64,000 nucleotides of DNA from Hyphomicrobiales bacterium (GCA_028285595.1 JANQOW010000016.1:4956-68955), one strand, 5' to 3'; positions 4,347-35,593 are shown, numbered from the stretch's first letter. Numbers and translations: made by a program. The notes: a model not told the origin generated them from the letters alone.

Positions 4347-4361
4347 ACCTAAAACGAGATG

Positions 4362-4389
4362 GGGAACGCATGCACCAGCGTGCGTTCCC
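4362..4389 (+). terminator. Hairpin between transporter and hydrolase genes (possible attenuator or weak terminator)
   Basis: GGGAACGCA-N10-TGCGTTCCC, a 9-bp perfect stem, 16 nt after the transporter stop. There is no U-tract. Confidence 0.3.
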
Positions 4390-4439
4390 AAACCTGATCA
4401 AGTGTGAGTGTACAAAGACAAAATGCAGGAGACCCATCT

Positions 4440-6854: not shown

Positions 6855-6924
6855 GTCTTGAGCCTTACGCCCCGCGGCAGGTTTGTCTCCTGACTGCGCC
6901 TTTAGAGAACCCCGGCTTATCTGG

Positions 6925-6966
6925 GAGCAGACGCGCATCGAAATGCGCATCTGCTCGGGTTTTTTC
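6925..6966 (+). terminator. Rho-independent terminator of the transporter/hydrolase unit
   Basis: GAGCAGACGCGCAT-CGAA-ATGCGCATCTGCTC stem-loop followed by GGGTTTTTTC. Confidence 0.7.
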
Positions 6967-7039
6967 TGGCGGCCATAATGGAAGCGCCAATCGTGATCCG
7001 CGGCTCATCCACAGAGCTCGGCGAGGCACACGTCAACCT

Positions 7040-7543
7040 TTAGCTTCCGAGACCGTTGACCTCGGCCACTGACACGTGGTGGAGGTCCGGCCAGTTCTTG
7101 GCCGCTTTGGCGAGAATGCCAGCCTTGTCTTTCTTGTACGCCTCGAAGACGGCGGCATTCAGGAAAACATAGAGCTTGCCGTCAACGATGTCGGCAAAGC
7201 GCGGGCTGCCGTCGAGCTTCTTGCCGAGCGCGACACCCAATGCGCAGTAGCCGCCGTACTGCGGCATATACTTCTCGGGTGCTGCAGCAAACTGGTTCAT
7301 CGCATCTTTTGAGACGAAGTAGTAAGCGACGCCATCATGGACATGCGTGTGCTTGGCACGCCCAGGCACAACACCCAGGCCATTGGCCATGGCGACGAGG
7401 TCGTTGCCGCGGAAGGCAATGCCTTCTCCGTTTACTGTTGTTCCCTTAGAAACGTTGTACTCGTCAACGGCGAACGCCGCCGGTACTGCTGAAAACACGC
7501 CGAAAAATGTGGCCGCAGCCAAGAGTGTGTTGATGGTCTTCAT
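7040..7543 (-). CDS. Secreted YHS-domain protein
   Basis: Start placed at MKTINTLLAAATFFGVFSAVPAAFA (signal peptide). The track ORF extends to 7666. The C-terminal region (YGGYCALGVALGKKLDGSP...GKLYVFLN) is recognised as YHS-type. Confidence 0.75.
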   Translation of the reverse strand: MKTINTLLAAATFFGVFSAVPAAFAVDEYNVSKGTTVNGEGIAFRGNDLVAMANGLGVVPGRAKHTHVHDGVAYYFVSKDAMNQFAAAPEKYMPQYGGYCALGVALGKKLDGSPRFADIVDGKLYVFLNAAVFEAYKKDKAGILAKAAKNWPDLHHVSVAEVNGLGS

Positions 7544-7662
7544 TTCAGTTCTCCTTTTGATTGCCGCTCCACGGAGCGGGCTGGGTGAACTCCGCTCGCC
7601 GTCTGGCCTGCGGAGGGGGGTGCCGGATTTCGGCAATCCTGGCGAACCCGGTGCAGCCGACC

Positions 7663-8127
7663 TCAAAGTCTGAGATCTGAAAGACCGGGATGATCGTCTG
7701 GCCTGAGCCCTTGCGGCCAGTGAAACTTGCGTTCTGAAGCTTTGATGCTGAGATCGTTGATGCTGGCAATCCGGCGTTGCATCAGACCGTCCGGAGCAAA
7801 CTCCCAGTTCTCGTTCCCGTAGGAGCGGAACCAGTCGCCCGTTGCGTCATGCCACTCGTAAGCGAAGCGCACCGCTATCCGGTTGTCCCGGAAAGCCCAG
7901 AGCTCCTTGATCAGCCGGTATTCGCGCTCCTGCTCCCACTTGGTTGTGAGAAAGCGCTCAATCTGTGCGCGGCCGGCTATGAACTCTGACCGGTTTCGCC
8001 ACTGACTGTCGACCGTGTATGCCAAAGCGACCTTCGCCGGATCGCGGGAGTTCCACCCATCTTCGGCAGCACGGACCTTCAGACGTGCAGTCTCCTCAGT
8101 AAAGGGGGGCAGGGGCGGGCGGGTCAT
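7663..8127 (-). CDS. NTF2/SnoaL-fold protein (DUF1348-like)
   Basis: 154-aa [25 protein letters not shown]...[25 protein letters not shown]...WEF matches my memory of DUF1348. Confidence 0.75.
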
Positions 8128-8250
8128 TGTTCATTTCCTTTTGGTTTTCCTGGTGAGGTGCATCTCCGGCCGCCAGGTGGGGAGGGAGGAGGGATGGGCT
8201 GGCGGCCGGAGGCTTTTTGCGCCGGAGGGGCAACGGCGCACGTTTGAAGC

Positions 8251-9108
8251 CTAAGCGGCCTGGGAGATGCGCTCGACGGCTTCGTCGGTCCACCAGAGGG
8301 CGTTGGCGATCATGCGGAAGTTAATCAGCGCCGCGAGATATCCATCACCTTCAGGCACTTTCGCGCCCGCCGTAGCATCACGCACAATTGCGACCTCAAA
8401 GCCGGTTTCCAGCAGCTCACGCATGTGGCTTTCGACACAGAGGTTGGCCGACATGCCTGCGAGGATCACCTTGTCGATGCCAATCTTGCGAAGCTGGAGA
8501 ACGAGGTCATTTTGCTCTGGGCCATAGACCTTGTGGGGCGAGCACACGATGGTCTTGCCGTCTTCAATGTACTTCTTGTACTGCGGCATCCAGTCGGCGC
8601 CGGAGCCTTCGAAGCCGTCAAGGTTGAGCGGATCTTTGCGGTTGAACATGCCGATCCCATGCATCACGCGCTCAAGCGTTCCTTCGAATTTCCACTTGTG
8701 GTCTTGCGGGTAATAGTAGTGAGGCGAGACGACGACCGGCATGTTGGAAGCCTTTGCGGCGATGAACAGACGCTCCAGGTTGTCGACGACGCCCTGTTCG
8801 CTGACGCTCTCGCCCACCACGCCCCAGGCCACGCCGCCTTCGTCGAGGAAATCAATTTGCGGATCGACGACAACCAGGGCGGTCCGGCCGGGATCAATCT
8901 GCATATCAACCTTGGGCAGGCCGGGTTTCGCCGGATCGGCATAGGTTGCTTTGGCCTCATCAGTGGCGGCCAGAACGTCGCGGCCAACCGCAGCGGCGGC
9001 TGCACCAGCAACGGCGGCTGTGGCGGCGCCGGTTAGCACCCTGCGCCGGGCTTGGCTGATGGTGTCTTTGGTGCTTTCGCATCCGGTTTTGAATTGGTCG
9101 TTGGTCAT
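8251..9108 (-). CDS. Isochorismatase-family (cysteine) hydrolase with twin-arginine signal peptide
   Basis: ATG 9108 has AAGGAAAGGAAG upstream. The N-terminus SQARRRVLTGAATAAVAGAAAAAV is Tat-like. Family motifs are ALVVVDPQIDF and ILAGMSANLCVES. Confidence 0.85.
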   Translation of the reverse strand: MTNDQFKTGCESTKDTISQARRRVLTGAATAAVAGAAAAAVGRDVLAATDEAKATYADPAKPGLPKVDMQIDPGRTALVVVDPQIDFLDEGGVAWGVVGESVSEQGVVDNLERLFIAAKASNMPVVVSPHYYYPQDHKWKFEGTLERVMHGIGMFNRKDPLNLDGFEGSGADWMPQYKKYIEDGKTIVCSPHKVYGPEQNDLVLQLRKIGIDKVILAGMSANLCVESHMRELLETGFEVAIVRDATAGAKVPEGDGYLAALINFRMIANALWWTDEAVERISQAA

Positions 9109-9173
9109 GGCGTCTTCCTTTCCTTCTTCAGAATTCAGCACGAAACCCCTTGTCTCGGCTGGGGATCAGTGTG

Positions 9174-9215
9174 GTGTACCGATCTGTTAACTTTAAAATG
9201 TACAGATCGGTACAC
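9174..9215. promoter_or_regulatory. 14-bp inverted repeat (probable TetR operator) in the divergent intergenic region
   Basis: GTGTACCGATCTGT-N14-ACAGATCGGTACAC, with perfect arms, between the isochorismatase-family gene and tetR. Confidence 0.5.
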
Positions 9216-9329
9216 TTTGTCAACACGATTCTTTGAAGATTGTGCGGAAAGATGTGTGGTTTTGTGAGTAAGCTAATGTTTTAATGTGAGAAAAAATTTT
9301 TCCCTTGAACGATCTAGATATTCAAAATA

Positions 9330-9342
9330 TGTACAGATCGGT
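9330..9342. promoter_or_regulatory. Third copy of the operator half-site, overlapping the tetR leader
   Basis: TGTACAGATCGGT is identical to 9199-9211. It lies 18 nt upstream of the tetR ATG. Confidence 0.45.
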
Positions 9343-9359
9343 TACTCAAAGGATTTGAA

Positions 9360-9923
9360 ATGCGACCAACAAAGCGAGATGAACTGGTTCAGAAGGCGCT
9401 GAAGGTGTTCTACCAGAACGGCTTTAACGCCACCGGCATGGACAAGCTCGTTGCCAAGACCGGCATTTCGAAAACGTCGATGTATAAGCACTTCCGAACC
9501 AAGGACGATCTCATCATTGCAGTGCTGCGCTTGCGGGACGAGCACTTTCGCAATTGGCTTTATCGGCGGATGGAAGAGCTGGGCGAAACGCCGGAAGAAC
9601 AGTTGATCGCGATGTTCGACGCGCTCGAAGAATGGTTCGCTGAGGCGGGCTACAAAGGCTGCATGTTCATCAAGGCCTCATCGGAGTTTCAGGACGCCAG
9701 TCATCCCATTCATAAGCAGTCGGCTGATCACAAACGTATGCTTGAGACTCATATGATCGGATTGGCTGAGAAGGCTGAACTTGCAAACCCTGAAGTCCTT
9801 GCTCGACAGCTGCTGTTGCTGAAAGAAGGCGCCATTGTCACAGCGCATTTGGGCCACACCGATAATCCTGCGCAGGATGCAAAGCTCGCTGCGGCACAAC
9901 TATTGGACATGCACCGGCAATAG
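9360..9923 (+). CDS. TetR/AcrR-family transcriptional regulator
   Basis: N-terminal HTH (ELVQKALKVFYQNGFNATGMDKLVAKTGISKTSMYKHFRTKDDL). AAGGA upstream. Confidence 0.9.
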   Translation: MRPTKRDELVQKALKVFYQNGFNATGMDKLVAKTGISKTSMYKHFRTKDDLIIAVLRLRDEHFRNWLYRRMEELGETPEEQLIAMFDALEEWFAEAGYKGCMFIKASSEFQDASHPIHKQSADHKRMLETHMIGLAEKAELANPEVLARQLLLLKEGAIVTAHLGHTDNPAQDAKLAAAQLLDMHRQ

Positions 9924-10140
9924 ATACTCTTGTGCACCGTGAAGTGTCGTTCCCATCTTGCTGCCCGCAATAGTGAGGCGCTGGCTGAGCGGGCGATTTC
10001 GCGGCAAGGCATATGGACCGCCAGAACGATGCCGAAGTCCAGGTCGTGCAACGGTTCCATAGTGACCCTTGACCTTAAGGCCGGGCCCCGATAGGCAAGG
10101 GGAGCTCAGCGTTGCGAACAACCGTTAGCCTCGATTTTCC

Positions 10141-11013
10141 ATGACTCTTACCCGCATGACACCGGCCTCAGAGCTGGCCGAGACCTACGCCGGTTGGCTC
10201 TGCGATGTGTGGGGCGTGCTGCACAATGGAGAGGCGGCGTTTCCAGCCGCCGTGGACGCTCTGTGTCGCTACAGGGCCGGCGGGGGGCGGGTGATCTTGA
10301 TCACCAACGCGCCACGCCAATCGTCTGAGGTGCTGCCCCAACTCGCTCAACTGGGCGTGCCGGACGACGCCTTCGACATGACCGTCACCTCCGGCGATGT
10401 CACCCGCAAGCTGGTGGAGGCGCGGCCCGACGCACCGCTCTATCATCTGGGCCCGGCCCGCGACTACGCCATGCTGCGCGGTCTGAGCAATCCCATTGTC
10501 GGGCTTGAAGACGCAGAGGTGTGCCTGCTCACCGGAGCGGTCCATGACGAGACCGAAACCGCTGAAGACTATGACGGCCAGCTTGCCACCATGCTCGCCA
10601 ACAAGGTCCCCATCATCTGCGCCAACCCTGATCTGGTGGTGCGCCGCGGCGACCGGCTGGTGATCTGCTCCGGCGCCATCGCCCAGCGCTATGACGAGAT
10701 GGGCGGTGAGGTGGTGATCGCCGGCAAGCCCCGCGCGCCCATTTACGAGGCGGCCATGACTGAGATGAGCCGCCTCCTGGGCCGCCCGGTCAACAAGAGC
10801 GAACTGCTGGCGGTGGGCGATGGCCTGCCCACAGACGTGCGCGGCGGGGCCGATAACGGCTTTGATGTTTACTTTCTCACCGCCGGCATCCATGAAAAAG
10901 AGCTCGGCCCCATGAGCGGGCCGGAGGGGCCGGCCAAAGTCTCCCAAAAGGTGGAAGAACAGTTTCCCGGCATCTCGCTGGCGGGTATATGTGACGAACT
11001 CAGATGGACCTGA
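10141..11013 (+). CDS. HAD-superfamily class IIA hydrolase (TIGR01459-like)
   Basis: 290-aa ORF. WLCDVWGVLHNG (DxWGV motif I), ITNAPR, and the late GDGLPTDVRG motif. Confidence 0.8.
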   Translation: MTLTRMTPASELAETYAGWLCDVWGVLHNGEAAFPAAVDALCRYRAGGGRVILITNAPRQSSEVLPQLAQLGVPDDAFDMTVTSGDVTRKLVEARPDAPLYHLGPARDYAMLRGLSNPIVGLEDAEVCLLTGAVHDETETAEDYDGQLATMLANKVPIICANPDLVVRRGDRLVICSGAIAQRYDEMGGEVVIAGKPRAPIYEAAMTEMSRLLGRPVNKSELLAVGDGLPTDVRGGADNGFDVYFLTAGIHEKELGPMSGPEGPAKVSQKVEEQFPGISLAGICDELRWT

Positions 11014-11041
11014 GGGGACGAAACAGAGGGCGACGACGGGC

Positions 11042-11476
11042 ATGAGTGCGCAGAGCTATTTTATCGAAGACCTTTCCACGGGCATGCAGGCCACCTCGTC
11101 ACGCGTGGCGAGCCGGAAAGATATCGACATTTTCGCCGAGGTGAGCGGCGACAGCAACCCGCTGCACCTGGACGAGGCCTATGCGGCCACCACCATGTTC
11201 AACGGTTGCATCGCGCACGGCATGCTGTCGGCCAGCTATATCTCCAAAGTTCTGGGCACGCAGCTCCCCGGTCCGGGCGCGATCTATTTATCCCAGAGCC
11301 TGAAGTTCAAGGCGCCCGTGCGCCCTGGCGATCAGGTGGATACCCAGGTTGAAGTCACCGGCCTGGATGAAGGCCGCCGGCGGGTCACGCTGCATTGCGA
11401 GTGCCGGGTGGGGGAAACCGTTGTCTTGTCCGGCGAAGCTCAGCTTCTGGTGCCGGCCCGACCGGCAGAAGGCTGA
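11042..11476 (+). CDS. MaoC-family (R)-specific enoyl-CoA hydratase/dehydratase
   Basis: Hot-dog fold signature FAEVSGDSNPLHLDEAYA...GCIAHGML. Start placed at MSAQSYF. Confidence 0.85.
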   Translation: MSAQSYFIEDLSTGMQATSSRVASRKDIDIFAEVSGDSNPLHLDEAYAATTMFNGCIAHGMLSASYISKVLGTQLPGPGAIYLSQSLKFKAPVRPGDQVDTQVEVTGLDEGRRRVTLHCECRVGETVVLSGEAQLLVPARPAEG

Positions 11477-11485
11477 ACGGCGCCC

Positions 11486-12484
11486 ATGCCCCTGATCGTC
11501 GGCAATGGCCCTGTGGCCGATGAGTTCCGCGGCGGCGTCATTGCCGTGGGCAATTTCGACGGCATGCATCGGGGCCATCAAAAGGTGCTCGAGCTGGCGG
11601 GGGCCAAAGCCAAGGCTCTTGGGGCGCCGCTCGGGGTGATGACGTTTGAGCCTCACCCCCGCACATTCTTCCGTCCGGACCAGCCGCTCTTCCGCCTCAC
11701 CCCCTTGGACTTGAAGGCGGACCTTATGCATGCGGCAGGCGCCGATTATGTGTTTGCGCTGGACTTCAACGCCGAGCTTGCCGGCCTGCCGGCCGAAGCA
11801 TTCATCAGCCGCGAGCTGCACGAGCGCCTGGGCGCGCGCCATGTGGTGACCGGGTATGACTTTCATTTCGGCAAAGGGCGCAAAGGCTCCCCCGACCTGA
11901 TTGCCGCCATGGGCGCCGATCTTGGGTTCAGCTCCACAGTCGTCGAACAGGTGACCGACGATGATGGACTGGCGCCCTTTTCCTCCTCCTCCATCCGCGA
12001 AGCCCTGCGCCGGGGCGAGGTGAGGGGGGCAGCAGAGCAGCTTGGCTACTGGTGGACGGTGCGCGGCAAGGTGGTCAAAGGCGATCAACGCGGCCGCACC
12101 ATCGGCTTTCCCACGGTGAACATTGAGATGGTGAACGACGGCCACCCGGCGCGCGGAATCTATGCCTGCCGTGTGCGCTGTGTGGAGACGGGCGAGAGCT
12201 GGCGCGGGGCGGGATATGTGGGCGAGCGGCCCACCTTCGACCGCAAGGGCGTGGTTTTGGAGGTCTACCTTCTGGACTTTGAGGGCGATCTTTATGGCCG
12301 CACCTTAAGCGTCCAGTTCAACAGCTATATCCGGCCTGACCACCGTTATGAGGGGGTCGATGCTCTGGTGGCGCAAATGACGGCCGATTGCGAGGACATT
12401 GCACGGCAACTTGCGGCGTTGGAGCGCGAAGATCCCATCGCCGCCCACCGGCTGGGCCAGGCCCAGCGGGCGGGGACTGTTTAG
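11486..12484 (+). CDS. ribF: Bifunctional riboflavin kinase / FAD synthetase
   Basis: 332 aa. GNFDGMHRGHQ nucleotidyltransferase motif and C-terminal kinase motifs (GRTIGFPTVN, GERPTF). Confidence 0.95.
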   Translation: MPLIVGNGPVADEFRGGVIAVGNFDGMHRGHQKVLELAGAKAKALGAPLGVMTFEPHPRTFFRPDQPLFRLTPLDLKADLMHAAGADYVFALDFNAELAGLPAEAFISRELHERLGARHVVTGYDFHFGKGRKGSPDLIAAMGADLGFSSTVVEQVTDDDGLAPFSSSSIREALRRGEVRGAAEQLGYWWTVRGKVVKGDQRGRTIGFPTVNIEMVNDGHPARGIYACRVRCVETGESWRGAGYVGERPTFDRKGVVLEVYLLDFEGDLYGRTLSVQFNSYIRPDHRYEGVDALVAQMTADCEDIARQLAALEREDPIAAHRLGQAQRAGTV

Positions 12485-12490
12485 CACGCC

Positions 12491-12571
12491 GTCATCCCGG
12501 AATTTGCGTGGAGGGCGACCTGATGGTTTGGTTTTTCGTCATCCCGGAATTTGCGCGAGCAAATATCCGGG
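12491..12571. repeat. Two copies of GTCATCCCGGAATTTGCG (REP-like intergenic element), the second forming a hairpin
   Basis: Identical 18-mers at 12491-12508 and 12538-12555. The second extends into CCCGGAATTTGCGCGAGCAAATATCCGGG. Confidence 0.6.
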
Positions 12572-12609
12572 ACCCATGGGCGGCAACCTTCAAAGCCAAT
12601 TGCTCTAGA

Positions 12610-12627
12610 TCCCCGCTTTCGCGGGGA
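12610..12627. repeat. REP-like palindrome TCCCCGCTTTCGCGGGGA
   Basis: 7-bp stem with a 4-nt loop. Same family as 15044-15061 and 20065-20092. Confidence 0.6.
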
Positions 12628-12631
12628 AGAC

Positions 12632-12696
12632 GGGGGGTGTGGGGATGACGGGGGGTGCGGGGATGACGGAGTGTGCGGAAATGAGTGTGTGGGAGG
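12632..12696. repeat. 18-bp tandem repeat, ~3.5 units
   Basis: Units are GGGGGGTGTGGGGATGAC, GGGGGGTGCGGGGATGAC, GGAGTGTGCGGAAATGAG and a partial TGTGTGGGAGG. They degenerate progressively toward the right. Confidence 0.7.
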
Positions 12697-12710
12697 CAAA
12701 CTCAACCACT

Positions 12711-12794
12711 AAGGCCAAATAGCCCGAATTTCGTTCTACAATCAGCGGTTTACGCGAAAATGGGTTCGTTCGGATACACCACCATTTTGTGGCG
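12711..12794. repeat. ~85-bp direct repeat, copy A
   Basis: AAGGCCAAATAGCCCGAAT...TTACGCGAAAATGGGTTCGTT...TTTTGTGGCG aligns without gaps to copy B. I estimate roughly three-quarters of positions are identical. Confidence 0.7.
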
Positions 12795-12836
12795 AAGATG
12801 ACAGCCGGAGGACGCCCGTAAGCAAAGTCACACATC

Positions 12837-12921
12837 AAGGCCAAATAGACCGAATCTCAACGGAGAATCAGGGGCTTACGCGAAATTGGGTTCGTTTCGC
12901 AGAGTTGCACTTTTGGTGGCG
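12837..12921. repeat. ~85-bp direct repeat, copy B
   Basis: AAGGCCAAATAGACCGAAT...TTACGCGAAATTGGGTTCGTTTCGC...TTTTGGTGGCG, 126 bp downstream of copy A. Contains the hairpin GCGAAA-N9-TTTCGC. Confidence 0.7.
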
Positions 12922-13019
12922 GTTGAGCGAACTGTGAATGAAATTCAGTAAACCATAAAGTGGCAGAACGATCAAAAAAACAAACGAGTTCAATTGTCTC
13001 CGAGGGATGTTGTAGCGAG

Positions 13020-13826
13020 TCACTCAGATGGTGATCCTGGTGCGATCCTGTAACCTTCAGCGTTTTCGCGCTCGGACCGTCTATAACTTGCTGGCCATTC
13101 ATCCCAAGTTCTCCCCTGGAGCAATCGACCAGTTTTCTTCTTGTTCTTACCGCCCCATTGTTTGAAATGAAACGCCACATTCGCAGAAACACATTGATCT
13201 CGGATGGACAACACCCAATCCTTTTCCATTGGCCGTGCTCCTGGACCGCTTTCTCCACCTGCAATCGCCCAATCGATGCCATCAAGGTTCAGATCTTCAA
13301 GGGGGCCAAGTAAGGGCTCCAAACTGAGAAACTTGGTCACTGCATTTGAGCGTCGCAGGTGATCAATGCGGTAGGCGTAATCTGCGTTTTCCACGCTCAC
13401 ACCCATCCAGATGTTGGGTTGCCAATTCAATAGCTTCGAGAGATCCTCCAGACGTTCGGCTCTTTTGGTAAGCACCTGATAGGTGTGCTGGGGTGTGTCC
13501 ACCATCGTGCTGAAAATGCGTTGTATGAATTCAAGCGGCACGTCCTCATGGAACAGATCAGACATACTGTTCACGAAGATAAGTCGACCGGACTTCCAAC
13601 TGTATGGCGACTGTAATGCGTGCTCATCGAGGTGTATTCGGCCACTCCATTTTGGCCGGCCTCCTGACTTCCTTGTCGTGCCACGATACTTTTTTGTTCC
13701 CATTGATGCCAATCGAGAGGCAAACCTCATTGCATAGCAGTTTGTGCAACCAGGCGACAAAACGGTACATCCTGCCACCGGGTTCCAAGTGGCCTCTGTC
13801 CACTCGATGTTTGAAGATCCCGCCAT
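13020..13826 (-). CDS. Three-Cys-motif protein of the phage Gp37/Gp68 family (PF07505 / DUF5131)
   Basis: 268 aa. C20-x6-C27-x2-C30 (NPVAGCTVLSPGCTNCYA). Conserved blocks FVNSMSDLFHE, LSLEPLLGPL, WAIAGGESGPGARP and FHFKQWGG. The ATG lies 1 nt after the stop of the upstream gene. Confidence 0.88.
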   Translation of the reverse strand: MAGSSNIEWTEATWNPVAGCTVLSPGCTNCYAMRFASRLASMGTKKYRGTTRKSGGRPKWSGRIHLDEHALQSPYSWKSGRLIFVNSMSDLFHEDVPLEFIQRIFSTMVDTPQHTYQVLTKRAERLEDLSKLLNWQPNIWMGVSVENADYAYRIDHLRRSNAVTKFLSLEPLLGPLEDLNLDGIDWAIAGGESGPGARPMEKDWVLSIRDQCVSANVAFHFKQWGGKNKKKTGRLLQGRTWDEWPASYRRSERENAEGYRIAPGSPSE

Positions 13827-13827
13827 T

Positions 13828-14727
13828 TTAGCTTCTTACCATCAAATGAGACGCTAGCTTTCTGGCGAGGGTTGATGCCGCTGGGCTAGGATTTCCACAC
13901 GCAAACAACAGTGAATACCAATGTCTACCCATCGGCCCAAGAGGTAGCCAAGAATCCAGAACGCCTCCTTGAAACTCGCTTTTCATCCGCGTGATCATAT
14001 ATCGAGTGATTTCGTCGATACTTACCTGTTTTGAGCTTTTTGGTGTGATCTCACCAAACAGATCTTCTTGTTGCTCCGTCGCAATCCACTCTGAACGCCA
14101 GTCTTTCGTACCCAATATCCGCTCTATCGAAGCCAACTGCTCTGGACGCATCTTGCCATCATCGCTGATTTGTCGATAGACGCACGGGAACGACGGGAAT
14201 AGGTACCATAAATCAATCGCTCTGGTTCGGGCGATTTCACACACAGTGCTCCACCCTGCTTGACTTCCATATGGATCAAGGAACACCACCGCCCTCGAGT
14301 TCCGCCAGTCAACACTTCTACAAAACTTCACGAGTTCGTCGTTGGCGTCGCCATGTCGAATCGAGATTCGGTCAGAAAGACCAGTGAAGTCATCCTTCAG
14401 CCTGCTCAAACTGTCCACTTTCCTCCGACTCGATTCGACAAATACATACTGATCAAAAGGACTCTGAATCTGAAGTGCACGTTTTGCCGACCCATCAATA
14501 ATTGGCTCCAGATCTTCAACGTCAGCAAGCAGATTATCTTGGTCAGATTCTCTGCCGGACGCTCCTATATCCACAGAGCCGGTTCCAGCAAACGCATCAA
14601 AGTAAACGAGCCTGAATTTCTGCCGTGACAATGCAGTCGTGTACATCCCCAGATAATCGACGATCAAGTCGAGTTTGGTCTTTGTGTGCACACTGCCGAA
14701 TTTTTGATCGGTCACAATTACCCCCAA
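13828..14727 (-). CDS. tcmP: Three-Cys-motif partner protein TcmP-like (TIGR04474-like; SAM-methyltransferase-like fold)
   Basis: 299-aa ORF from TTG 14727. GTG 14715 with GGGGGT upstream is an alternative start. N-terminal HTKTKLDLIVDYL, motif-I-like YFDAFAGTGS and motif-IV-like VFLDPYG. Family assignment is from memory. Confidence 0.8.
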   Translation of the reverse strand: MGVIVTDQKFGSVHTKTKLDLIVDYLGMYTTALSRQKFRLVYFDAFAGTGSVDIGASGRESDQDNLLADVEDLEPIIDGSAKRALQIQSPFDQYVFVESSRRKVDSLSRLKDDFTGLSDRISIRHGDANDELVKFCRSVDWRNSRAVVFLDPYGSQAGWSTVCEIARTRAIDLWYLFPSFPCVYRQISDDGKMRPEQLASIERILGTKDWRSEWIATEQQEDLFGEITPKSSKQVSIDEITRYMITRMKSEFQGGVLDSWLPLGPMGRHWYSLLFACGNPSPAASTLARKLASHLMVRS

Positions 14728-14742
14728 ACCTCACAAAGAACA

Positions 14743-14770
14743 AAATTAGAACGATTCTGCGAAAAGTCAA
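14743..14770 (-). promoter_or_regulatory. Candidate sigma70-type promoter of the tcmP-gp37/68 pair
   Basis: On the minus strand: TTGACT (14770-14765), a 16-nt spacer, then TAATTT (14748-14743). This lies about 16-28 nt upstream of the candidate start codons. Confidence 0.35.
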
Positions 14771-15043
14771 GGATTTTCTGAGTTTTCTATGGCTTGACGC
14801 AGCATAACAATCGACATTCAAGCATGAGCGCTATACGTCGATTTTGCTCCTTTTGAGCAATACGATAAGACTCAGACTTGCCCACAGATGCTGATAAAAC
14901 CGGTGGCTCCGCTTGGCTCGCCTGGGCTCAGGCGCCCATGCGCTCTTGGCCCCCCGGGAGCGCGGGGGAGCTGCCGGTCCGTTCAGCCGCGCCCCTGCGA
15001 CAGCAGGGGTCCATGGCTCACGCCTTTCATTTGGCTAAGAAGG

Positions 15044-15061
15044 TCCCTGCTTTCGCAGGGA
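15044..15061. repeat. REP-like palindrome TCCCTGCTTTCGCAGGGA (also a likely terminator hairpin for the araC-family gene)
   Basis: 7-bp stem with a 4-nt loop, 16 nt downstream of the minus-strand stop at 15077. Same family as 12610-12627. Confidence 0.5.
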
Positions 15062-15076
15062 TGCAGGAACGAACGG

Positions 15077-16102
15077 CTAAAGACGAGGTTCTTCAGCGCT
15101 CTTCCGGGAACACGGAAAGCGCAGCGTATCGGAGGGCTTCTCGTCGAAACGCTCCTGATAAAGCCGCGCAAAGCGGCCCACATTGGTGAAGCCCCATTTC
15201 AGGGCGCAGGCCGTTACCGATCCGGCCGCCTGTTGAAGATCCTGGCGCGCCCGTTCAAGACGGAGGTCGCGCAGAACCTCCATGGGCGTTGCCTGGCGAA
15301 ACTGGCGAAAGCCCGAATGCAAAGCGCGTTCGCTACATCGGGCCTCCTGCGCCAGCATCTTGACGGTGAGTGGCTGGTCCGCATGGGCCCGCATGAGCTC
15401 CTCGGCCCGTCTCACCTGCTTCGGGATAGCCGTGTCCACAGCTTTGGTGCCCTGCGGGCGATAGTTATGGGCCAAATCTCCGAGAATGATGGAAAGGGCA
15501 TGTTCGCGGATACTGGCCGCCACAACCGGGGAGCTCAGCACGTCAGGGGTCTCGGTGAACATCACCTTCAGATAGTTGATAAGGCACAAAAGGGGCGATG
15601 CCCCGGGGTTATTCAGATCAAGCAGCGGCTCAAACCGCAGCGGATCGTTCAGCTCCCGGCCATAGAAGGTTTGCGCGCGCGCCTGCAGAAGGGCGTGGGG
15701 CACAGAGAAGTTGAGCACCGTGTTGTGGTCGTTGCAGAGCGTCTGCGTGCCCGGCGACCAGCCAAACACCCGCGCCTGCGAAGGCCCCGGGCGGATGGGC
15801 CCGTAGAACGGATCAAGGGTTTCCGCATACCCTTCCAAAGAAACGCTGATGCAAAATCTGTTGTGATCTTCCAGGGCCGTGCCCACCATGGGCGCCCCCC
15901 AGTTCACCAGATTGAGCGTGAGATCCGCGCTTGCGCAGGTTGCGAACTCGGCTTGACTGCCGCGGCGGCGAGCCCCTTTGGCTTCTGCACGGTACGGCCC
16001 CAGCTTCTTTGAAATGCTGTCGCCCACCCTCTCAATCGAGCCGGCATGGCGCACGCCATAGCGCTGGCGAAAATCTTCATATGATTTCAAAGCAGGTATC
16101 AT
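15077..16102 (-). CDS. AraC-family transcriptional regulator
   Basis: 341 aa. C-terminal double HTH (LTVKMLAQEARCSERALHSGFRQFRQATPMEVLRDLRLERARQDL...ACALKWGFTNVGRFARLYQERF). The antisense 374-aa ORF is rejected. Confidence 0.9.
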   Translation of the reverse strand: MIPALKSYEDFRQRYGVRHAGSIERVGDSISKKLGPYRAEAKGARRRGSQAEFATCASADLTLNLVNWGAPMVGTALEDHNRFCISVSLEGYAETLDPFYGPIRPGPSQARVFGWSPGTQTLCNDHNTVLNFSVPHALLQARAQTFYGRELNDPLRFEPLLDLNNPGASPLLCLINYLKVMFTETPDVLSSPVVAASIREHALSIILGDLAHNYRPQGTKAVDTAIPKQVRRAEELMRAHADQPLTVKMLAQEARCSERALHSGFRQFRQATPMEVLRDLRLERARQDLQQAAGSVTACALKWGFTNVGRFARLYQERFDEKPSDTLRFPCSRKSAEEPRL

Positions 16103-16247
16103 TGGTTGAAGACCCGTCTTTTACACCAAAATGATAAATCCCATAATTGTGATTCGCGAAAAGTTAAGTTTTTGACAACCCGCCGCCCCCGCCACCCCGG
16201 CGCTGCTGCATTGCACGCGCCAGACCAGTTGCCTAAACTACCCCCAA

Positions 16248-16943
16248 ATGGGCAACATCACGGATATCCCCCTCTTCGCCGGGCTTGGCGAAGAGAGCTG
16301 CCGCCGCTACGCCGGGTCCCTCACCTGGCGCACCTATGGGGAGAACGAACTCGTCGTGGACATCGACGACCAATCCGACGACGTGCTCTTCGTCATCTCC
16401 GGCAAGGTGCGCATTGTCCACCGGGCCGAGATCGGCAAGGAGGTGATCATCGGCGACCGTGGCCCCGGCGGCTATTTCGGTGAGATGGCCGCCATAGACG
16501 GGCTCGCCCGCTCCGCTAACGTGACGGCCCTGCAAACCTCGCAAATCGCCACCATGCCCGCCGGTCCCTTCCTGGACCTGCTGACCCATGAGCCGGACGT
16601 GTGCAAAACCGTGCTGCGCGGTCTGGTGGGCGGCATGCGCTCGCTCACGCGCAAGCTCTCCGAACACGCCTACCTCACCGCTGTGGAGCGGCTCAACTGC
16701 GAGCTTCTGCGTCTCTCGCGCCCGCGTCCCGGCCATGAGATCCAGCGCAGTATATCGCCCCCGCCCACCCAGCAGGAGCTTGCCGAGCGCATCGGATCGC
16801 GCCGCGAGGTGGTCTCCCGCGCCATGGCGGCTCTGGAAAAAGACGGGCTGATTGAAAAGACCCGCGGCGCGCTTGTGCTGCCCGACCCGGGCGAGCTTAA
16901 CCGGCTGATCTCCGAAAAAGGATTGTCCGTCAATCTGGATTAG
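16248..16943 (+). CDS. CRP-like cyclic-nucleotide-binding transcriptional regulator
   Basis: 231 aa. cNMP pocket FGEMAAIDGLARSANV (RSA motif). The HTH TQQELAERIGSRREVVSRAMAALEKDGLI aligns without gaps to E. coli CRP [29 protein letters not shown], keeping R180/E181/R185. Confidence 0.9.
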   Translation: MGNITDIPLFAGLGEESCRRYAGSLTWRTYGENELVVDIDDQSDDVLFVISGKVRIVHRAEIGKEVIIGDRGPGGYFGEMAAIDGLARSANVTALQTSQIATMPAGPFLDLLTHEPDVCKTVLRGLVGGMRSLTRKLSEHAYLTAVERLNCELLRLSRPRPGHEIQRSISPPPTQQELAERIGSRREVVSRAMAALEKDGLIEKTRGALVLPDPGELNRLISEKGLSVNLD

Positions 16944-16995
16944 CCGGCGCCTCGGAAATAGATAACCTTCTGTTTTAATGAGATAATACACGCGG

Positions 16996-17011
16996 TGTGA
17001 CGGATTACACA
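16996..17011. promoter_or_regulatory. CRP-type box TGTGA-CGGATT-ACACA upstream of RTX gene 1
   Basis: 9/10 match to TGTGA-N6-TCACA. The centre is 29.5 nt from the first base of the -10-like TAGCTT (17033-17038), which is class-II geometry. It lies 84 nt upstream of the ATG. Confidence 0.5.
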
Positions 17012-17051
17012 TCGCCGTCCCGCCCCCGTCTCTAGCTTGCCCTCACAACAG

Positions 17052-17068
17052 CGGAGGGCGGTCCTCCG
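17052..17068 (+). promoter_or_regulatory. Conserved leader hairpin CGGAGG-GCGGT-CCTCCG (RTX gene 1)
   Basis: 6-bp GC-rich stem. The same 23-nt block (CGGAGGGCGGTCCTCCGGGGACA) is found at 18390-18412. Confidence 0.4.
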
Positions 17069-17094
17069 GGGACACGAAGAGAGGGATTGGGACA

Positions 17095-18207
17095 ATGGCG
17101 AGATCCAGTTACAGCATCGCACTGAGCTTCACCAAAGGCGTCAAAGGCATCAAAGGCACCGACAAATCCGATTGGCTGACGGGCTCTTACTTTCACGATG
17201 ATTACATCTATGCCGGCCAGGGCAACGACCACGTGTTCGGGTATAACGGCAACGACTATCTCTTCGGTGACGAGGGCAACGATGTGCTCTACGGCGGTGC
17301 CGGCAATGACGTGCTCGACGGAGGCGATGGCGCCGACACCCTGTTGGGCGGCCGCGGAAATGACACGTTCATCGGCGGCTGGGGCCATAATCACAACGAT
17401 GGAGGCAGTGGCATCGACACGATGACATATGCCGGATGGCACACCGGGGTTGTCGTCAATCTGGAGGTCGGCGAAGGGCTGGCGGGGGCTCTTGGCGACA
17501 CCTATGTCAACATTGAGAACGTGACGGGCACGGACCATACGGACGTCCTTTACGGCGACAGCGGTGCCAATGTGCTGAATTCGGGCGCGGGCAATGACAG
17601 CCTCTTCGACAGCGACGGCGACGACACGGTCTTTGCCGGCGCCGGCAATGACACCCTGTGGGCCGGCTCCGGCGCCGATGCCTATTATGGCGGGACGGGC
17701 ATCGACAGCATCTTTTTCGGCGCCAGCTTGGGCGGGGTCACGGTCGATCTGGAGAACGGCACCGGCTCGGGCGGACACGCAGAAGGCGACACCTACATGA
17801 GCGTGGAACGGGTTTACGGCAGCCTCAACGACGACGTTCTGATCGGCGATGACGGAGATAATGTGCTGCTCGGCGATGCGGGCTCCGACGTGATTTATGA
17901 CGGCGCCGGCAATGACGTGATGTCGGGCGACCAGGGCGAAGGCACGCCCTTCAATCATGCGGACACCTTCGTGTTCAGCGATGGCCAAGATCTCGAAGCC
18001 GACGTGATCACGGACTTTGCCGCGGGCATCGACACGATCGACTTCAGCCAGGCCGATGAGTTCTTCGGGTTTGACGACCTGTTCAATGGCGGCGACCGGT
18101 ACATGGAACAGGTGGGGGCGGACACGGTGATCCACTATTACGATCACACGCTTACGCTGCTGAACGTCAATATGAACGATCTGAGCTCAGACGACTTCAT
18201 CTTTTGA
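17095..18207 (+). CDS. RTX (hemolysin-type calcium-binding repeat) protein, paralog 1
   Basis: 370 aa. Many GGxGxD nonapeptides (GNDYLFGDEGNDVLYGGAGNDVLDGGDGADTLLGGRGND). Acidic C-terminal tail ...DLSSDDFIF. Confidence 0.9.
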   Translation: MARSSYSIALSFTKGVKGIKGTDKSDWLTGSYFHDDYIYAGQGNDHVFGYNGNDYLFGDEGNDVLYGGAGNDVLDGGDGADTLLGGRGNDTFIGGWGHNHNDGGSGIDTMTYAGWHTGVVVNLEVGEGLAGALGDTYVNIENVTGTDHTDVLYGDSGANVLNSGAGNDSLFDSDGDDTVFAGAGNDTLWAGSGADAYYGGTGIDSIFFGASLGGVTVDLENGTGSGGHAEGDTYMSVERVYGSLNDDVLIGDDGDNVLLGDAGSDVIYDGAGNDVMSGDQGEGTPFNHADTFVFSDGQDLEADVITDFAAGIDTIDFSQADEFFGFDDLFNGGDRYMEQVGADTVIHYYDHTLTLLNVNMNDLSSDDFIF

Positions 18208-18247
18208 TCCCGCGCCGCCCCAAGATCTCCCTTGCACGGTGCAGAAA

Positions 18248-18270
18248 CCGGCCAGCCCAGCGCTGGCCGG
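18248..18270 (+). terminator. Hairpin after RTX gene 1
   Basis: CCGGCCAGC-CCAGC-GCTGGCCGG, a 9-bp stem, with no U-tract. Confidence 0.35.
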
Positions 18271-18333
18271 AAGCGATTCAAGATAAACCCTTTAAGCCAT
18301 TGTTTTAAATAAATTTTCCGATCCTGTTTGCGG

Positions 18334-18349
18334 TGTGACGGATTACACA
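18334..18349. promoter_or_regulatory. CRP-type box TGTGA-CGGATT-ACACA upstream of RTX gene 2
   Basis: Identical 16-mer to 16996-17011. The centre is again 29.5 nt from the first base of a -10-like hexamer (TAGTGT, 18371-18376). Confidence 0.5.
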
Positions 18350-18389
18350 TCGCCGCCTCGACCCTTCGCCTAGTGTGTTCTCAGCAAAA

Positions 18390-18406
18390 CGGAGGGCGGT
18401 CCTCCG
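18390..18406 (+). promoter_or_regulatory. Conserved leader hairpin CGGAGG-GCGGT-CCTCCG (RTX gene 2)
   Basis: Identical to 17052-17068. Followed by the conserved AGAGAGGGATTGGGACAATGGCG. Confidence 0.4.
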
Positions 18407-18436
18407 GGGACATTTAAAAAGAGAGGGATTGGGACA

Positions 18437-19570
18437 ATGGCGAAGTACAGCCCCACCAAGACGATCATCACCAGCTCCAAAGGCATCAAAACCATCAAAG
18501 GCAGCTCCAAAACCGATTGGCTGACCGGATCATATCTGCACCACGACACCATTTATGCCGCAGGCGGAGACGATATCGTGTTCGGTTTCAGCGGCAACGA
18601 CATCCTGTTCGGTCAGGAGGGCCATGACACCCTGAACGGGGGCCATGGCAACGATATTCTGAACGGCGGCAACGGCAATGATGTGTTGAACGGCGGTGAC
18701 GGCAACGACACTCTGATCAGCGGTATCGGCAACGATATCCTGAACGGCGGCAAAGGCATCGACACGGTGTCCTATGCAGACCGCGATTCAGGCGTCCATG
18801 TGGACCTGGAGGAAGGTAAGGGCTTCTGGGACGCGTTTGGCGACACCTACAGCAGCATCGAGAATGTGATCGGCACAGATCATAACGATGTCATCACCGG
18901 CAACCATGCCGACAATGTCATCACCTCTGGTGCCGGACGGGACTCGATCCGGGACGGCGACGGCAGCGATGTTGTCCACGCCGGCGTCGGCAATGACGTC
19001 ATGTACGCCGGCGATGGGGCCGACAAGTACTTCGGCGGATCAGGGACCGACAGCCTGATCTTCACGGACAGCGACGCGGGTGTCACGGTCGACCTGGAGA
19101 ACGGCACCGGATCAGGCGGCTACGCGGAGGGCGACGTCTATGACAGCATCGAAAATGTCATCGGTTCCCAGTTTGACGACACGCTGATCGGCGATGACGG
19201 CGACAATCAACTGAACGGTAGCAACGGTTCGGACGTGATCGTTGATGGGGCCGGCGATGACTGGATGACCGGCGATTTTCATGGCTGCGGCTATTTTCCG
19301 GACGCCGGCGCTGCCTTCGCGGACACCTTCGTGTTCAGCGGCGGCGAAGAGGACGAGCACGACACGATCGGGGATTTCGCGCCCGGCGTGGATACGATCG
19401 ACTTCTCCCAAGCGGAAGACTTTTTCGGCTTCGACGATCTGACCAATGGCGGCGACCGCTTCATGGAACAGGTGGGCAGCAGCACGGTCATCCACTATTA
19501 TGATCACACCTTGACCCTGCTGGGCGTCAACATGGACGATCTGAGCTCTGACGATTTTATCTTCGCGTGA
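18437..19570 (+). CDS. RTX (hemolysin-type calcium-binding repeat) protein, paralog 2
   Basis: 377 aa, collinear with paralog 1. Shared blocks: DWLTGSY, GTDHx[57 protein letters not shown]. Confidence 0.9.
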
Positions 19571-19580
19571 TCAGGATTGT

Positions 19581-19617
19581 CCTCCCGCATCCCCGGTCCG
19601 TTGGGGATGCGGGGAGG
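19581..19617 (+). terminator. Strong hairpin after RTX gene 2
   Basis: CCTCCCGCATCCCC-GGTCCGTT-GGGGATGCGGGGAGG (about 14 bp with one bulge), with no clear U-tract. Confidence 0.45.
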
Positions 19618-19837
19618 CGAATCGGCGAATCAATATCCCGTGTTGTAGCTGGATTTTGCGCGCATTTTGGGGTATAGAGCCTCATCTCGAGCTGCATTTG
19701 TTCTAAAAGACCGAAGACGCCACTCCCTTGAGTGATCCGACGAACCTCTTGCCAACAATGTACCCCGAAGACACGCATGCCGCCTTTGCATGAGGCAAAC
19801 GGCGGCGAACATAGCCCATTGTTGGAGACAAACTACA

Positions 19838-20047
19838 ATGCCAGTTGGAACCGTGAAATTCTTTAATACCGTCAAAGGCTACGGCTTTATCGAGCCGGAA
19901 GGCGGCGGCAAGGATGCCTTTGTTCACATCTCCGCCGTCGAACGCGCCGGCCTCACCACGCTCAATGAAGGCCAAAAGGTCTCTTTCGAGCTGGAGGAAG
20001 GCCGCGGCGGCAAGATGGCCGCTGAACAGATCTCGATCGTGGAGTAG
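19838..20047 (+). CDS. cspA: Cold-shock protein (CspA family)
   Basis: 69 aa. [34 protein letters not shown] carries the RNP1/RNP2 motifs. The track ORF starts further upstream at 19790. Confidence 0.92.
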
Positions 20048-20064: not shown

Positions 20065-20092
20065 CGTCATCCCCGCGAATGCGGGGATGACG
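20065..20092. repeat. REP-like perfect palindrome CGTCATCCCCGC-GAAT-GCGGGGATGACG
   Basis: 12-bp stem, 17 nt after the cspA stop. Related to the palindromes at 12610 and 15044. Confidence 0.7.
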
Positions 20093-35035: not shown

Positions 35036-35593
35036 CTAGGCGCGTCTTAAGAACACCACTTGCGTATCGCCATAGGCGCGCCTGTCGATCTCCAGAAAAT
35101 CGGCTGGCACCTCAATGTCCGCCTTGGCCGCCTCTTCCAGCACGCAGAGCGCAGACGGGCTGAGCCAGCCCTGTGTGGCGGCCGATCTTAAAGCCTTCTC
35201 CCCCAGGCCCTTCCCGTAAGGAGGATCGGCGAACACCAGATCAAACGGCGCCATGTTCTGCACCTCGCCCAGACGCGTGGCATCGCGGCGCCAGATTTTG
35301 CTGACCCCCATGGCGCCCATGGCTTCCACGTTCTGGCGGATCAGGGCTCTGGCGCTTGCGGCTTCTTCGATGAAGAGGCAATAGCGTGCCCCGCGTGACA
35401 AGGCTTCCAGACCGAGCGCCCCGGTGCCGGCGAACAGGTCCAGCACCCGTGCGCCCTCAAGGTCAAACCCGTCTATCCCGTGCGCCAGGATGTTGAAGAG
35501 CGCTTCGCGGGTGCGGTCTGAGGTGGGGCGGGTGGCGTGCGACTTTGGCCCGGCCAGGGCCAGCCCTTTATGATTTCCGCCGACGATGCGCAT
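35036..35593 (-). CDS. rsmD: 16S rRNA (guanine966-N2)-methyltransferase
   Basis: MRIVGGNHKG..., LDLFAGTGALGLEALSRGA and VFADPPYG motifs. The start overlaps the upstream gene by 26 nt. Confidence 0.9.
   Translation of the reverse strand: MRIVGGNHKGLALAGPKSHATRPTSDRTREALFNILAHGIDGFDLEGARVLDLFAGTGALGLEALSRGARYCLFIEEAASARALIRQNVEAMGAMGVSKIWRRDATRLGEVQNMAPFDLVFADPPYGKGLGEKALRSAATQGWLSPSALCVLEEAAKADIEVPADFLEIDRRAYGDTQVVFLRRA

Follow-up and report, generated by a model that had tools for sequence, protein, structure and literature searches.

A TcmP-DUF5131 gene pair of the PDC-M41 type in a Hyphomicrobiales bacterium: a candidate SAM-dependent nucleic-acid modification module

A 64,000-nucleotide stretch of DNA from a Hyphomicrobiales bacterium (GCA_028285595.1, JANQOW010000016.1:4956-68955; hereafter, the window) carries on its minus strand a two-gene cassette, where the proximal gene encodes a TcmP protein and the distal gene encodes a protein of the DUF5131 (phage Gp37/Gp68) family. 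Judged by profile searches, the cassette is a genuine and intact member of an already catalogued candidate pair, PDC-M41 or TIGR04474-PF07505. The PDC entries of PADLOC are “guilt-by-embedding” predictions, most of which still await validation (PMC12988326). A literature search for PDC-M41, PF07505 and GMT-wHTH returned nothing relevant, and no paper mentioning PDC-M41 was found. In the interpretation preferred here, to which we assign a probability of about 0.45, the cassette is an S-adenosylmethionine (SAM)-dependent two-enzyme module for modification of nucleic acid, probably DNA, used in the conflict between phage and host.

Family membership, motifs and predicted folds

The 268-amino-acid (aa) distal protein (13020-13826, minus strand; isoelectric point 9.0), PADLOC PDC-M41B, matches the Pfam hidden Markov model (HMM) PF07505 with an E-value of 1e-97 and 326.9 bits, the gathering threshold being 28.9; residues 5-245 of the protein cover positions 2-243 of the 243 profile positions. 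It also matches phrog_2045. The TcmP protein, PADLOC PDC-M41A, scores 162.5 bits with the NCBIfam HMM TIGR04474, the curated cut-off of which is 53. Both PADLOC models match at full length (1.7e-83 for A, TcmP, and 3.6e-112 for B, DUF5131), and the two genes are adjacent and co-directional. An earlier reading of the window made without database searches (the sequence-only reading) had named PF07505 and TIGR04474, and the HMM searches, with both scores above the cut-offs, bear out these assignments.

The DUF5131 protein contains the three-Cys motif C20-x6-C27-x2-C30, encoded by positions 13737-13769 (minus strand). This motif and the blocks FVNSMSD.FH, LSLEPL.GPL, GGESGP..R and FHFKQWGG, blocks by which the sequence-only reading had recognised the family, are all invariant in 37/37 homologues, among which there are 98 invariant columns, including C20, C27, C30 and C212. 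Conservation is unusually high, with 70-81% identity between this protein and those of sources labelled Bradyrhizobium, Devosia, Thalassospira, Rhodocyclaceae and Leptospira. TcmP diverges faster (about 50% identity).

In the structural model of the DUF5131 protein (predicted local distance difference test score, pLDDT, 82), the Foldseek match of the highest probability was spore photoproduct lyase (SPL; probability 0.99, E 3.6e-3, query template-modelling score, TMq, 0.38-0.41). Other matches include MgmA, MiaB and LipA (lipoyl synthase), and generic TIM barrels score similarly. The match to TIGR04471, “radical SAM mobile pair protein A”, has an E-value of 9e-20 and 71 bits, which is below the cut-off. 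The RadicalSAM.org/SFLD table places DUF5131 as a radical-SAM subgroup in Megacluster-5-2, beside SPL in 5-3 (PMC9477430), and the SPL-like fold match agrees with this placement and with the sub-threshold TIGR04471 match. The model weakly suggests that DUF5131 is a basic three-Cys TIM-barrel protein of the radical-SAM superfamily, SPL being its nearest structural relative.

The TcmP protein possesses a methyltransferase motif I, D40-A-F-A-G-T-G46 (14578-14598, minus strand), where D40, F42, A43, G44 and G46 are invariant in 42/42 homologues, in agreement with the SAM-methyltransferase-like motif proposed earlier. Invariance extends to D123 and N125 and, almost, to E94. The motif IV-like sequence D147-P-Y-G150 (14266-14277, minus strand) had been called degenerate; this description has to be revised, since D, P and G are invariant in 42/42 homologues and position 149 is occupied by F, Y or C. 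The motif IV consensus of amino-methyltransferases is D/N-P/L-P-Y/F/H (PMC3367198), and the TcmP sequence D147-P148-[F/Y/C]-G150 is one residue short of it, with Cys replacing the aromatic residue in some members. This makes catalytic competence plausible, but not assured. The RsmD encoded in the same window, with which TcmP had been compared, indeed carries LDLFAGTGALG near 35443 and VFADPPYG near 35236 on the minus strand.

The TcmP model (pLDDT 86) has a class I SAM methyltransferase fold. A Foldseek-type search gave 130 PDB matches at E <= 1e-3, and the 50 listed were all enzymes of the class I SAM-dependent methyltransferase fold. The best of them were Trm1 (3axs, E 2.6e-7, TMq 0.50), RlmJ (TMq 0.43) and the RsmD-like structures 2fhp and 2fpo, relative to which TcmP has an extra C-terminal domain of about 100 aa. 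The viral structure library yielded generic methyltransferases only, mostly RNA cap or RNA methyltransferases. Motif I follows the predicted strand E35-40, the motif IV-like sequence follows the predicted strand E140-146, and in the model the conserved motifs sit after strands 1, 2, 3 and 4, the places of class I motifs I to IV. On the strength of the model, TcmP appears to be a class I SAM-dependent methyltransferase-fold protein with motifs I-III kept and a shortened motif IV. Structure prediction of the single proteins thus leads to amino-methyltransferases for TcmP and, weakly, to SPL for DUF5131. When compared with PDB chains by sequence and by profile, both proteins gave chance-level matches only, and neither matched a nuclease family in Pfam, NCBIfam or PADLOC.

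The open reading frames (ORFs) of the window include 13020-13826 (minus strand, 268 aa) and 13828-14727 (minus strand, 299 aa, TTG start), as described in the sequence-only reading. The stop-start junction between them (13824-13830, minus strand) consists of TAA at 13830-13828, a single base at 13827 and ATG at 13826-13824, and the TcmP and DUF5131 genes are, by this arrangement, predicted to be translationally coupled. The length of 299 aa given for the proximal protein corresponds to an existing ORF, but the GTG start at 14715, which yields 295 aa, is more likely than TTG at 14727. The public gene call (P0001) is 295 aa from GTG 14715, a Shine-Dalgarno-like GGGGG run lies 5 nt upstream of this codon, and TcmP homologues start at the matching position of the alignment. 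Because these three agree, the TcmP gene is taken here as 13828-14715 (minus strand). A 2183-bp contig of an independent public run (Logan SRR20820731) encodes an identical TcmP followed by a 268-aa DUF5131 gene, with the 1-nt spacing kept.

Partners and genomic contexts of the pair

The scan of species-representative genomes yielded 80 loci with TcmP relatives. DUF5131 adjoins TcmP in 72 of the 80 (two of these are truncated by contig ends); it is co-directional with and downstream of TcmP in 60 loci and lies on the opposite strand in seven. In 54/60 co-directional pairs, the DUF5131 start follows the TcmP stop by no more than 5 nt, the median gap being -1. In seven cyanobacterial loci DUF5131 is absent, and the adjacent gene, in divergent orientation to TcmP, is a canonical radical-SAM gene (PF04055) with CxxxCxxC. 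The product of this gene is most like the PA0069/Rv2578c families and resembles TIGR04470 (59 bits). This partner swap provides contextual evidence for a radical-SAM-type role of DUF5131. Altogether, a three-Cys or radical-SAM neighbour is present in 79/80 loci and neither partner was found in one, so the pairing is near-obligate, and the adjacency of PF07505 and TcmP, earlier described as a recognised conserved pair, is well founded. In two Lyngbya loci (L052, 7897-9849, and L057, 7230-9182), the radical-SAM gene adjacent to TcmP was recovered by tblastn in two pieces about 865 nt apart, which could mean that the gene is disrupted or contains an insertion or an intron.

The two proteins co-diverge (Mantel r 0.59, p 0.001), with a mean identity across loci of 57% for DUF5131 versus 42% for TcmP. 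There is no recurrent third gene in the 80 loci: the next commonest neighbours occur in seven loci at most, and those annotated have mostly housekeeping roles (UvrA, a hybrid kinase, acyl-CoA dehydrogenase, LepA). The TcmP superfamily comprises about 4,000 representative clusters at 50% identity. An apparent TcmP-DUF5131 fusion among the 150 top superfamily representatives (P0242, 552 aa) was rejected, as it consists of two near-identical tandem TcmP copies. It carries DPCA at the motif IV position and is probably an assembly or gene-call artefact.

The DUF5131 proteins of Bradyrhizobium elkanii and Thalassospira, which are 72-73% identical to the window copy, are paired with a protein of 370-380 aa that has a C-terminal GMT-like winged helix-turn-helix (wHTH) domain, PF22560. 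The PADLOC model PDC-M30A matches this partner as well as the “methyltransferase” gp42 of Gordonia phage ThankyouJordi. The N-terminal halves of the M30A-type proteins are homologous to TcmP (hhalign probabilities 97.6 and 95.3), with motif I and DPFG in common, and PDC-M41 and PDC-M30 are therefore two subtypes of a single kind of system. The window DUF5131 is only about 55% identical to the copies that accompany the TcmPs most like the window TcmP. Its being closer to M30-type copies than to those of the nearest TcmPs points to partner exchange, and the sequence comparison suggests that DUF5131 exchanges TcmP-like partners (M41A, M30A). A further arrangement was seen on a 540-kb contig labelled Leptospira interrogans (GCA_050283925.1), where a 285-aa ORF without a Pfam domain precedes a DUF5131 gene whose product is 71% identical, next to an HSDR_N_2 protein. 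That this copy is so similar to those of alphaproteobacteria is striking, and may result from a transfer or from a labelling or contamination problem.

In the phage collection of 50,697 records, DUF5131 was found in 180 and the M30A type in 13. TcmP was found in only two, which are Synechococcus phages with the DUF5131 gene next to it; no relative of TcmP turned up when IMG/VR was scanned by pattern. The mycobacteriophage copies of DUF5131 belong to a module for DNA replication and metabolism, where their neighbours encode a replication initiator, a helicase, HNH endonucleases and DNA methyltransferases. The M30 pair of a temperate Gordonia phage is located between the integrase and the immunity repressor.

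Several cellular loci place the family near known or supposed defence genes. In B. elkanii (GCA_041260425.1, locus 587-20792), a DUF5131 protein 73% identical to the window copy and its PDC-M30A-type partner are encoded within a Dpd-like 7-deazaguanine cluster together with DndB-like, TGT-like, QueC, QueD, QueE and DpdG proteins and SNF2 or DEAD helicases. A Nostoc plasmid carries the arrangement of TcmP with a canonical radical-SAM gene beside BREX-1, a Leisingera plasmid has the pair beside two Abi genes, and a type IIG/PglX-like methyltransferase gene adjoins the pair in three loci. On plasmid pSymA of S. meliloti 1021 (4334-9995), an 845-aa ORF (4334-6871), which we take to be hna, is followed by tcmP (6950-7876), a convergent 415-aa ORF and the DUF5131 gene (9177-9995). 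A published table lists hna and tcmP as adjacent among the genes up-regulated in a nolR+ strain.

Composition, flanks and history of the islet

The cassette lies within a G+C-poor islet (12650-14900) with a G+C content of 0.43-0.51 versus 0.62-0.67 in the flanks, so the low G+C noted earlier was confirmed. For the pair itself the value is 0.498 against 0.599 in its flanks. The pair is poorer in G+C than its flanks in 62/64 loci (median -9.3 points, Wilcoxon p 6.5e-12), and the islet character is a family trait.

The neighbouring genes encode an isochorismatase, a TetR regulator, a HAD hydrolase, MaoC and RibF on one side, and AraC-type and Crp-type regulators, two RTX proteins, a cold-shock protein (CSD) and IleS on the other. 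All of them are cellular; no integrase, transposase or phage gene was found within about 6 kb of the cassette, in accordance with the sequence-only reading, and tRNA genes were not searched for. The two RTX calcium-binding proteins (17095-18207 and 18437-19570; 370 and 377 aa) are tandem paralogues with similar N- and C-termini, encoded next to the Crp-type regulator.

The nearest relative, with 65% identity for TcmP and 81% for DUF5131, is the metagenome-assembled genome Vin_25, where the pair occupies the matching ribF-ileS variable region. A block of the window (13083-20047) is inverted with respect to Vin_25 (5371-11536), and homology of the 5' leader begins at 14752. Only a single RTX copy is present in the stretch of Vin_25 that was read. 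Since Vin_25 carries the pair in the matching region, the acquisition at this place was not recent. The idea of a self-contained, horizontally acquired unit fits the low G+C in 62/64 loci, the lack of a recurrent third gene and the varied contexts. The ratios of nonsynonymous to synonymous divergence (pN/pS) against Vin_25 are 0.26 for TcmP, 0.15 for DUF5131 and 0.17 for RibF, and by this comparison both cassette genes are under purifying selection. The synonymous divergence (pS) is saturated for the pair (0.82-0.84) and cannot date the acquisition; that of RibF (0.54) is probably depressed by the third-position G+C bias.

The 5' leader (14716-14770, minus strand) contains the GGGGG run and a weak promoter candidate, TTGACT at 14770-14765 and TAATTT at 14748-14743, spaced by 16 nt. 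The cassette had been credited with its own sigma70-like promoter; this was not upheld, as the candidate matches 8/12 positions by eye and falls below the scan threshold, and scanning for promoters and terminators gave no site before TcmP or after DUF5131, the sites found overall being no more than chance. The search of 12300-15200 with Rfam gave no match.

The cassette had also been described as bounded by repeats. Neither flanking direct or inverted repeats typical of insertion nor a target-site duplication was found, and the local repeats all lie on the ribF side (12490-12896). They include a 19-nt repeat present twice (12490 and 12537), a G-rich 18-nt unit present three times in tandem (12623-12676) and a 75-nt repeat present twice (12696-12770 and 12822-12896; 126-nt spacing, 79% identical); the 19-nt and 75-nt repeats have no further copies in the window. 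What does occur on both sides is a GC-rich hairpin motif, CCYGC-TTTC-GCRGG, with four copies in the window versus 0.22 expected, all in the ribF-ileS variable region. One copy, CCCGC-TTTC-GCGGG, is located on the ribF side of the islet (12612-12625, plus strand), two were found by the motif search between the islet and the araC-like gene (14994-15007, minus strand, and 15046-15059, plus strand), and the fourth (20072-20085, minus strand) shares about 27 nt, inverted, with the copy at 12612. Hairpins stand on either side of both the islet and the inverted block. They look like repetitive extragenic palindromic (REP) or terminator elements and are not insertion scars. Because copies sit at both ends of the inverted block (about 13083-20047), the hairpins at 12612 and 20072 may have mediated its inversion relative to Vin_25.

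Possible mechanism, rival explanations and known systems

If the cassette is a nucleic-acid modification module, its two proteins might work as follows. TcmP and DUF5131 would form a complex whose target is nucleic acid, most likely DNA. TcmP would bind SAM and present the target base, perhaps methylating it at a nitrogen, while C20, C27 and C30 of DUF5131 would hold a [4Fe-4S] cluster at which SAM is cleaved, so that a radical step could take place at the presented base. The resulting base modification would serve the conflict with phages or mobile elements, either as a self-mark or through action on foreign DNA. We infer Fe-S binding, SAM cleavage, a DNA substrate, complex formation and a defence phenotype from the relationships described above. 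DNA is favoured as the substrate because the fold is SPL-like, because phage M6 gp53, itself an SPL-like radical-SAM enzyme, modifies DNA (PMC8989533), because M30A-type partners have a wHTH domain and because phage copies lie in DNA-metabolism contexts.

A number of results weigh against this interpretation. The DUF5131 motif is CX6CX2C and not the canonical CxxxCxxC, no match of DUF5131 to PF04055 (Radical_SAM) was obtained at E 0.01 or better, and its fold matches are weak (E about 3e-3, TM about 0.4). When the DUF5131 profile was compared with that of the canonical radical-SAM partner of cyanobacteria, the result was not significant, only nine residues around GC..CY being aligned; the two partner types need not be equivalent, as TIGR04470 and TIGR04471 are themselves named as a pair. 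TcmP matches no Pfam family up to E 1, methyltransferases included; its motif IV has no second Pro, the aromatic residue is not invariant, and the best structural matches are RNA, not DNA, methyltransferases. About 165 of the 180 phage records with DUF5131 contain no detectable TcmP-like partner, and DUF5131 can therefore act without one. The full-text literature search revealed no paper demonstrating a function for TcmP or DUF5131; the papers that name them list them in tables only, and the statement of the sequence-only reading that no role has been demonstrated for either partner holds.

The genomic neighbourhoods speak partly in the same direction. For the 33 chromosomal loci whose flanks were complete, most of the two nearest genes on either side have housekeeping functions, and the closest chromosomal relatives likewise lie among housekeeping genes. 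The comparison of near and far neighbours in these loci, made as the test of enrichment beside defence genes proposed earlier, gave 81 versus 33 matches to PADLOC models. The excess comes mostly from UvrA matching mad3 and mad8 in five loci and from redundant models per protein; once these are discounted, there is no clear defence-island enrichment near the pair. The defence association is thus real in some contexts but lacks statistical backing in this comparison. The proposal of a modification or defence module made in the sequence-only reading is matched by PDC-M41, the folds, the partner swap and the BREX, Abi, Hna, Dpd and type IIG contexts, and receives no clear signal from the enrichment test.

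A bolder version of the preferred interpretation, which is tentative and rather doubtful, is that DUF5131 and a TcmP-family partner constitute a new class of DNA-directed immunity or epigenetic system, a radical-SAM analogue of restriction-modification (R-M). The SPL-like enzyme would then install a hypermodified base or damage unmarked foreign DNA, and the interchangeable M41A or M30A partner would supply target recognition or a protective mark. DUF5131 is a radical-SAM subgroup at RadicalSAM.org that is conserved across distant bacteria and for which we found no published activity. If the pair does modify DNA, this would be new chemistry for bacterial epigenetics and anti-phage immunity, and would bring the radical-SAM enzymes known to act on DNA from two, SPL and phage M6 gp53, to only three. 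Since the catalogues already contain the pair, the copy in the window offers no handle of its own. It is the comparative results that yield hypotheses, namely the near-obligate pairing, the cyanobacterial swap, the M41 and M30 subtypes, the conserved coupling and the low G+C.

The pair might instead be a selfish, addictive element of the R-M kind, where DUF5131 damages DNA lacking the TcmP methyl mark and TcmP is the protective methylase. Small G+C-poor islets without mobility genes are also characteristic of many type II R-M systems, and the methyltransferase-fold partner with intact SAM motifs, the tight coupling and the SPL-like fold, which acts on DNA, are in line with this explanation, as are the M41A and M30A partners, swappable like specificity modules. 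However, the partnerless DUF5131 of about 165/180 phage genomes is hard to square with a toxic effector, and no nuclease motif is evident. Besides, DUF5131 is far more conserved than its methyltransferase-like partner (57% versus 42%), and in R-M systems the usual pattern is the reverse of a conserved DUF5131-like component with a variable methylase. An addictive element of this kind is considered unlikely.

Accessory RNA modification, with a tRNA or rRNA base first methylated by TcmP and then elaborated by DUF5131 through radical chemistry, would have precedents in Trm5 followed by TYW1 in wybutosine synthesis and in RlmN/Cfr. The nearest folds of TcmP (Trm1, RlmJ, RsmD-like) and the predominance of RNA cap and RNA methyltransferases among the viral matches agree with it, but fold likeness among amino-methyltransferases does not separate DNA from RNA targets. 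The sporadic distribution, low G+C, plasmid locations, position in a phage lysogeny module and defence neighbourhoods weigh against an RNA modification pair, as do the wHTH of M30A-type partners and the phage copies in DNA-metabolism modules, and we consider this explanation comparably unlikely.

Viperin-type radical-SAM enzymes have been mentioned as an established defence mechanism (PMC12988326). By analogy with prokaryotic viperins, the cassette could produce a modified nucleotide or metabolite that blocks phage replication, with no polymer modified. The two-enzyme SAM-dependent layout would be compatible with such small-molecule chemistry, and the pair is listed as a defence candidate. Against this, the nearest fold is SPL and not viperin, there is no nucleotide-kinase or nucleoside triphosphate-binding partner, the TcmP fold matches amino-methyltransferases acting on polymers, and the wHTH of M30A points to nucleic acid, which makes such chemistry very unlikely.

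A similarly small chance is given to captured phage counter-defence, where DUF5131 and a methylase would modify the DNA of the element against restriction and the chromosomal copy would be a leftover. The occurrence of DUF5131 in 180 phage genomes, often near DNA methyltransferases, and the precedent of phage DNA hypermodification by an SPL-like radical-SAM enzyme (PMC8989533) speak for this explanation. It does not account for the near absence of TcmP from phages (2/50,697 records, none found in IMG/VR), for the purifying selection and the retention of the pair at one place in two diverged genomes, or for the lack of phage genes nearby. Finally, a decaying prophage remnant without current function, suggested by the naming of DUF5131 after phage proteins and the phrog_2045 match, was rejected as having almost no probability, given the intact frames with all conserved motifs, the conserved coupling, the 80 loci in varied non-phage contexts, pN/pS of 0.15-0.26 and the lack of an integrase, transposase or phage gene within about 6 kb.

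Compared with known systems, the cassette resembles type II R-M in being a small, G+C-poor, mobile two-gene islet with a SAM methyltransferase-fold protein, and differs in having no recognisable endonuclease and in its radical-SAM-like partner. As in Trm1, RlmJ and RsmD, which methylate exocyclic amines at the nitrogen, TcmP combines the class I fold with motifs I-III and an acidic-Pro-aromatic motif after strand 4; unlike them, it is without the second Pro of motif IV, has no sequence-level match to a methyltransferase HMM or PDB chain and is paired with a radical-SAM-type neighbour. DUF5131 likewise shares the three Cys residues and the basic character with SPL and phage M6 gp53, SPL being its best-probability fold match (0.99), whereas their motif is CX3CX2C instead of CX6CX2C, and DUF5131 is smaller, does not match PF04055 and reaches a TM of only about 0.4. 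With respect to the pair TIGR04470/TIGR04471 (proteins B and A), DUF5131 resembles A and the cyanobacterial partner resembles B, but the scores lie far below the cut-offs of 355 and 410, and neither is a member.

The closest likenesses are within the catalogued candidates. The DUF5131 of PDC-M30 is 72-73% identical to the window copy, and the N-terminal domain of its partner is homologous to TcmP; that partner is about 370 aa long and has PF22560, while the window TcmP is shorter, has another C-terminal domain and does not match PF22560. In relation to the TIGR04474-PF07505 definition, the cassette scores above both HMM cut-offs and its genes are adjacent, whereas seven cyanobacterial TcmP loci have a canonical radical-SAM gene instead. 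It matches both components of PADLOC PDC-M41 and shows no difference from it at the sequence level.

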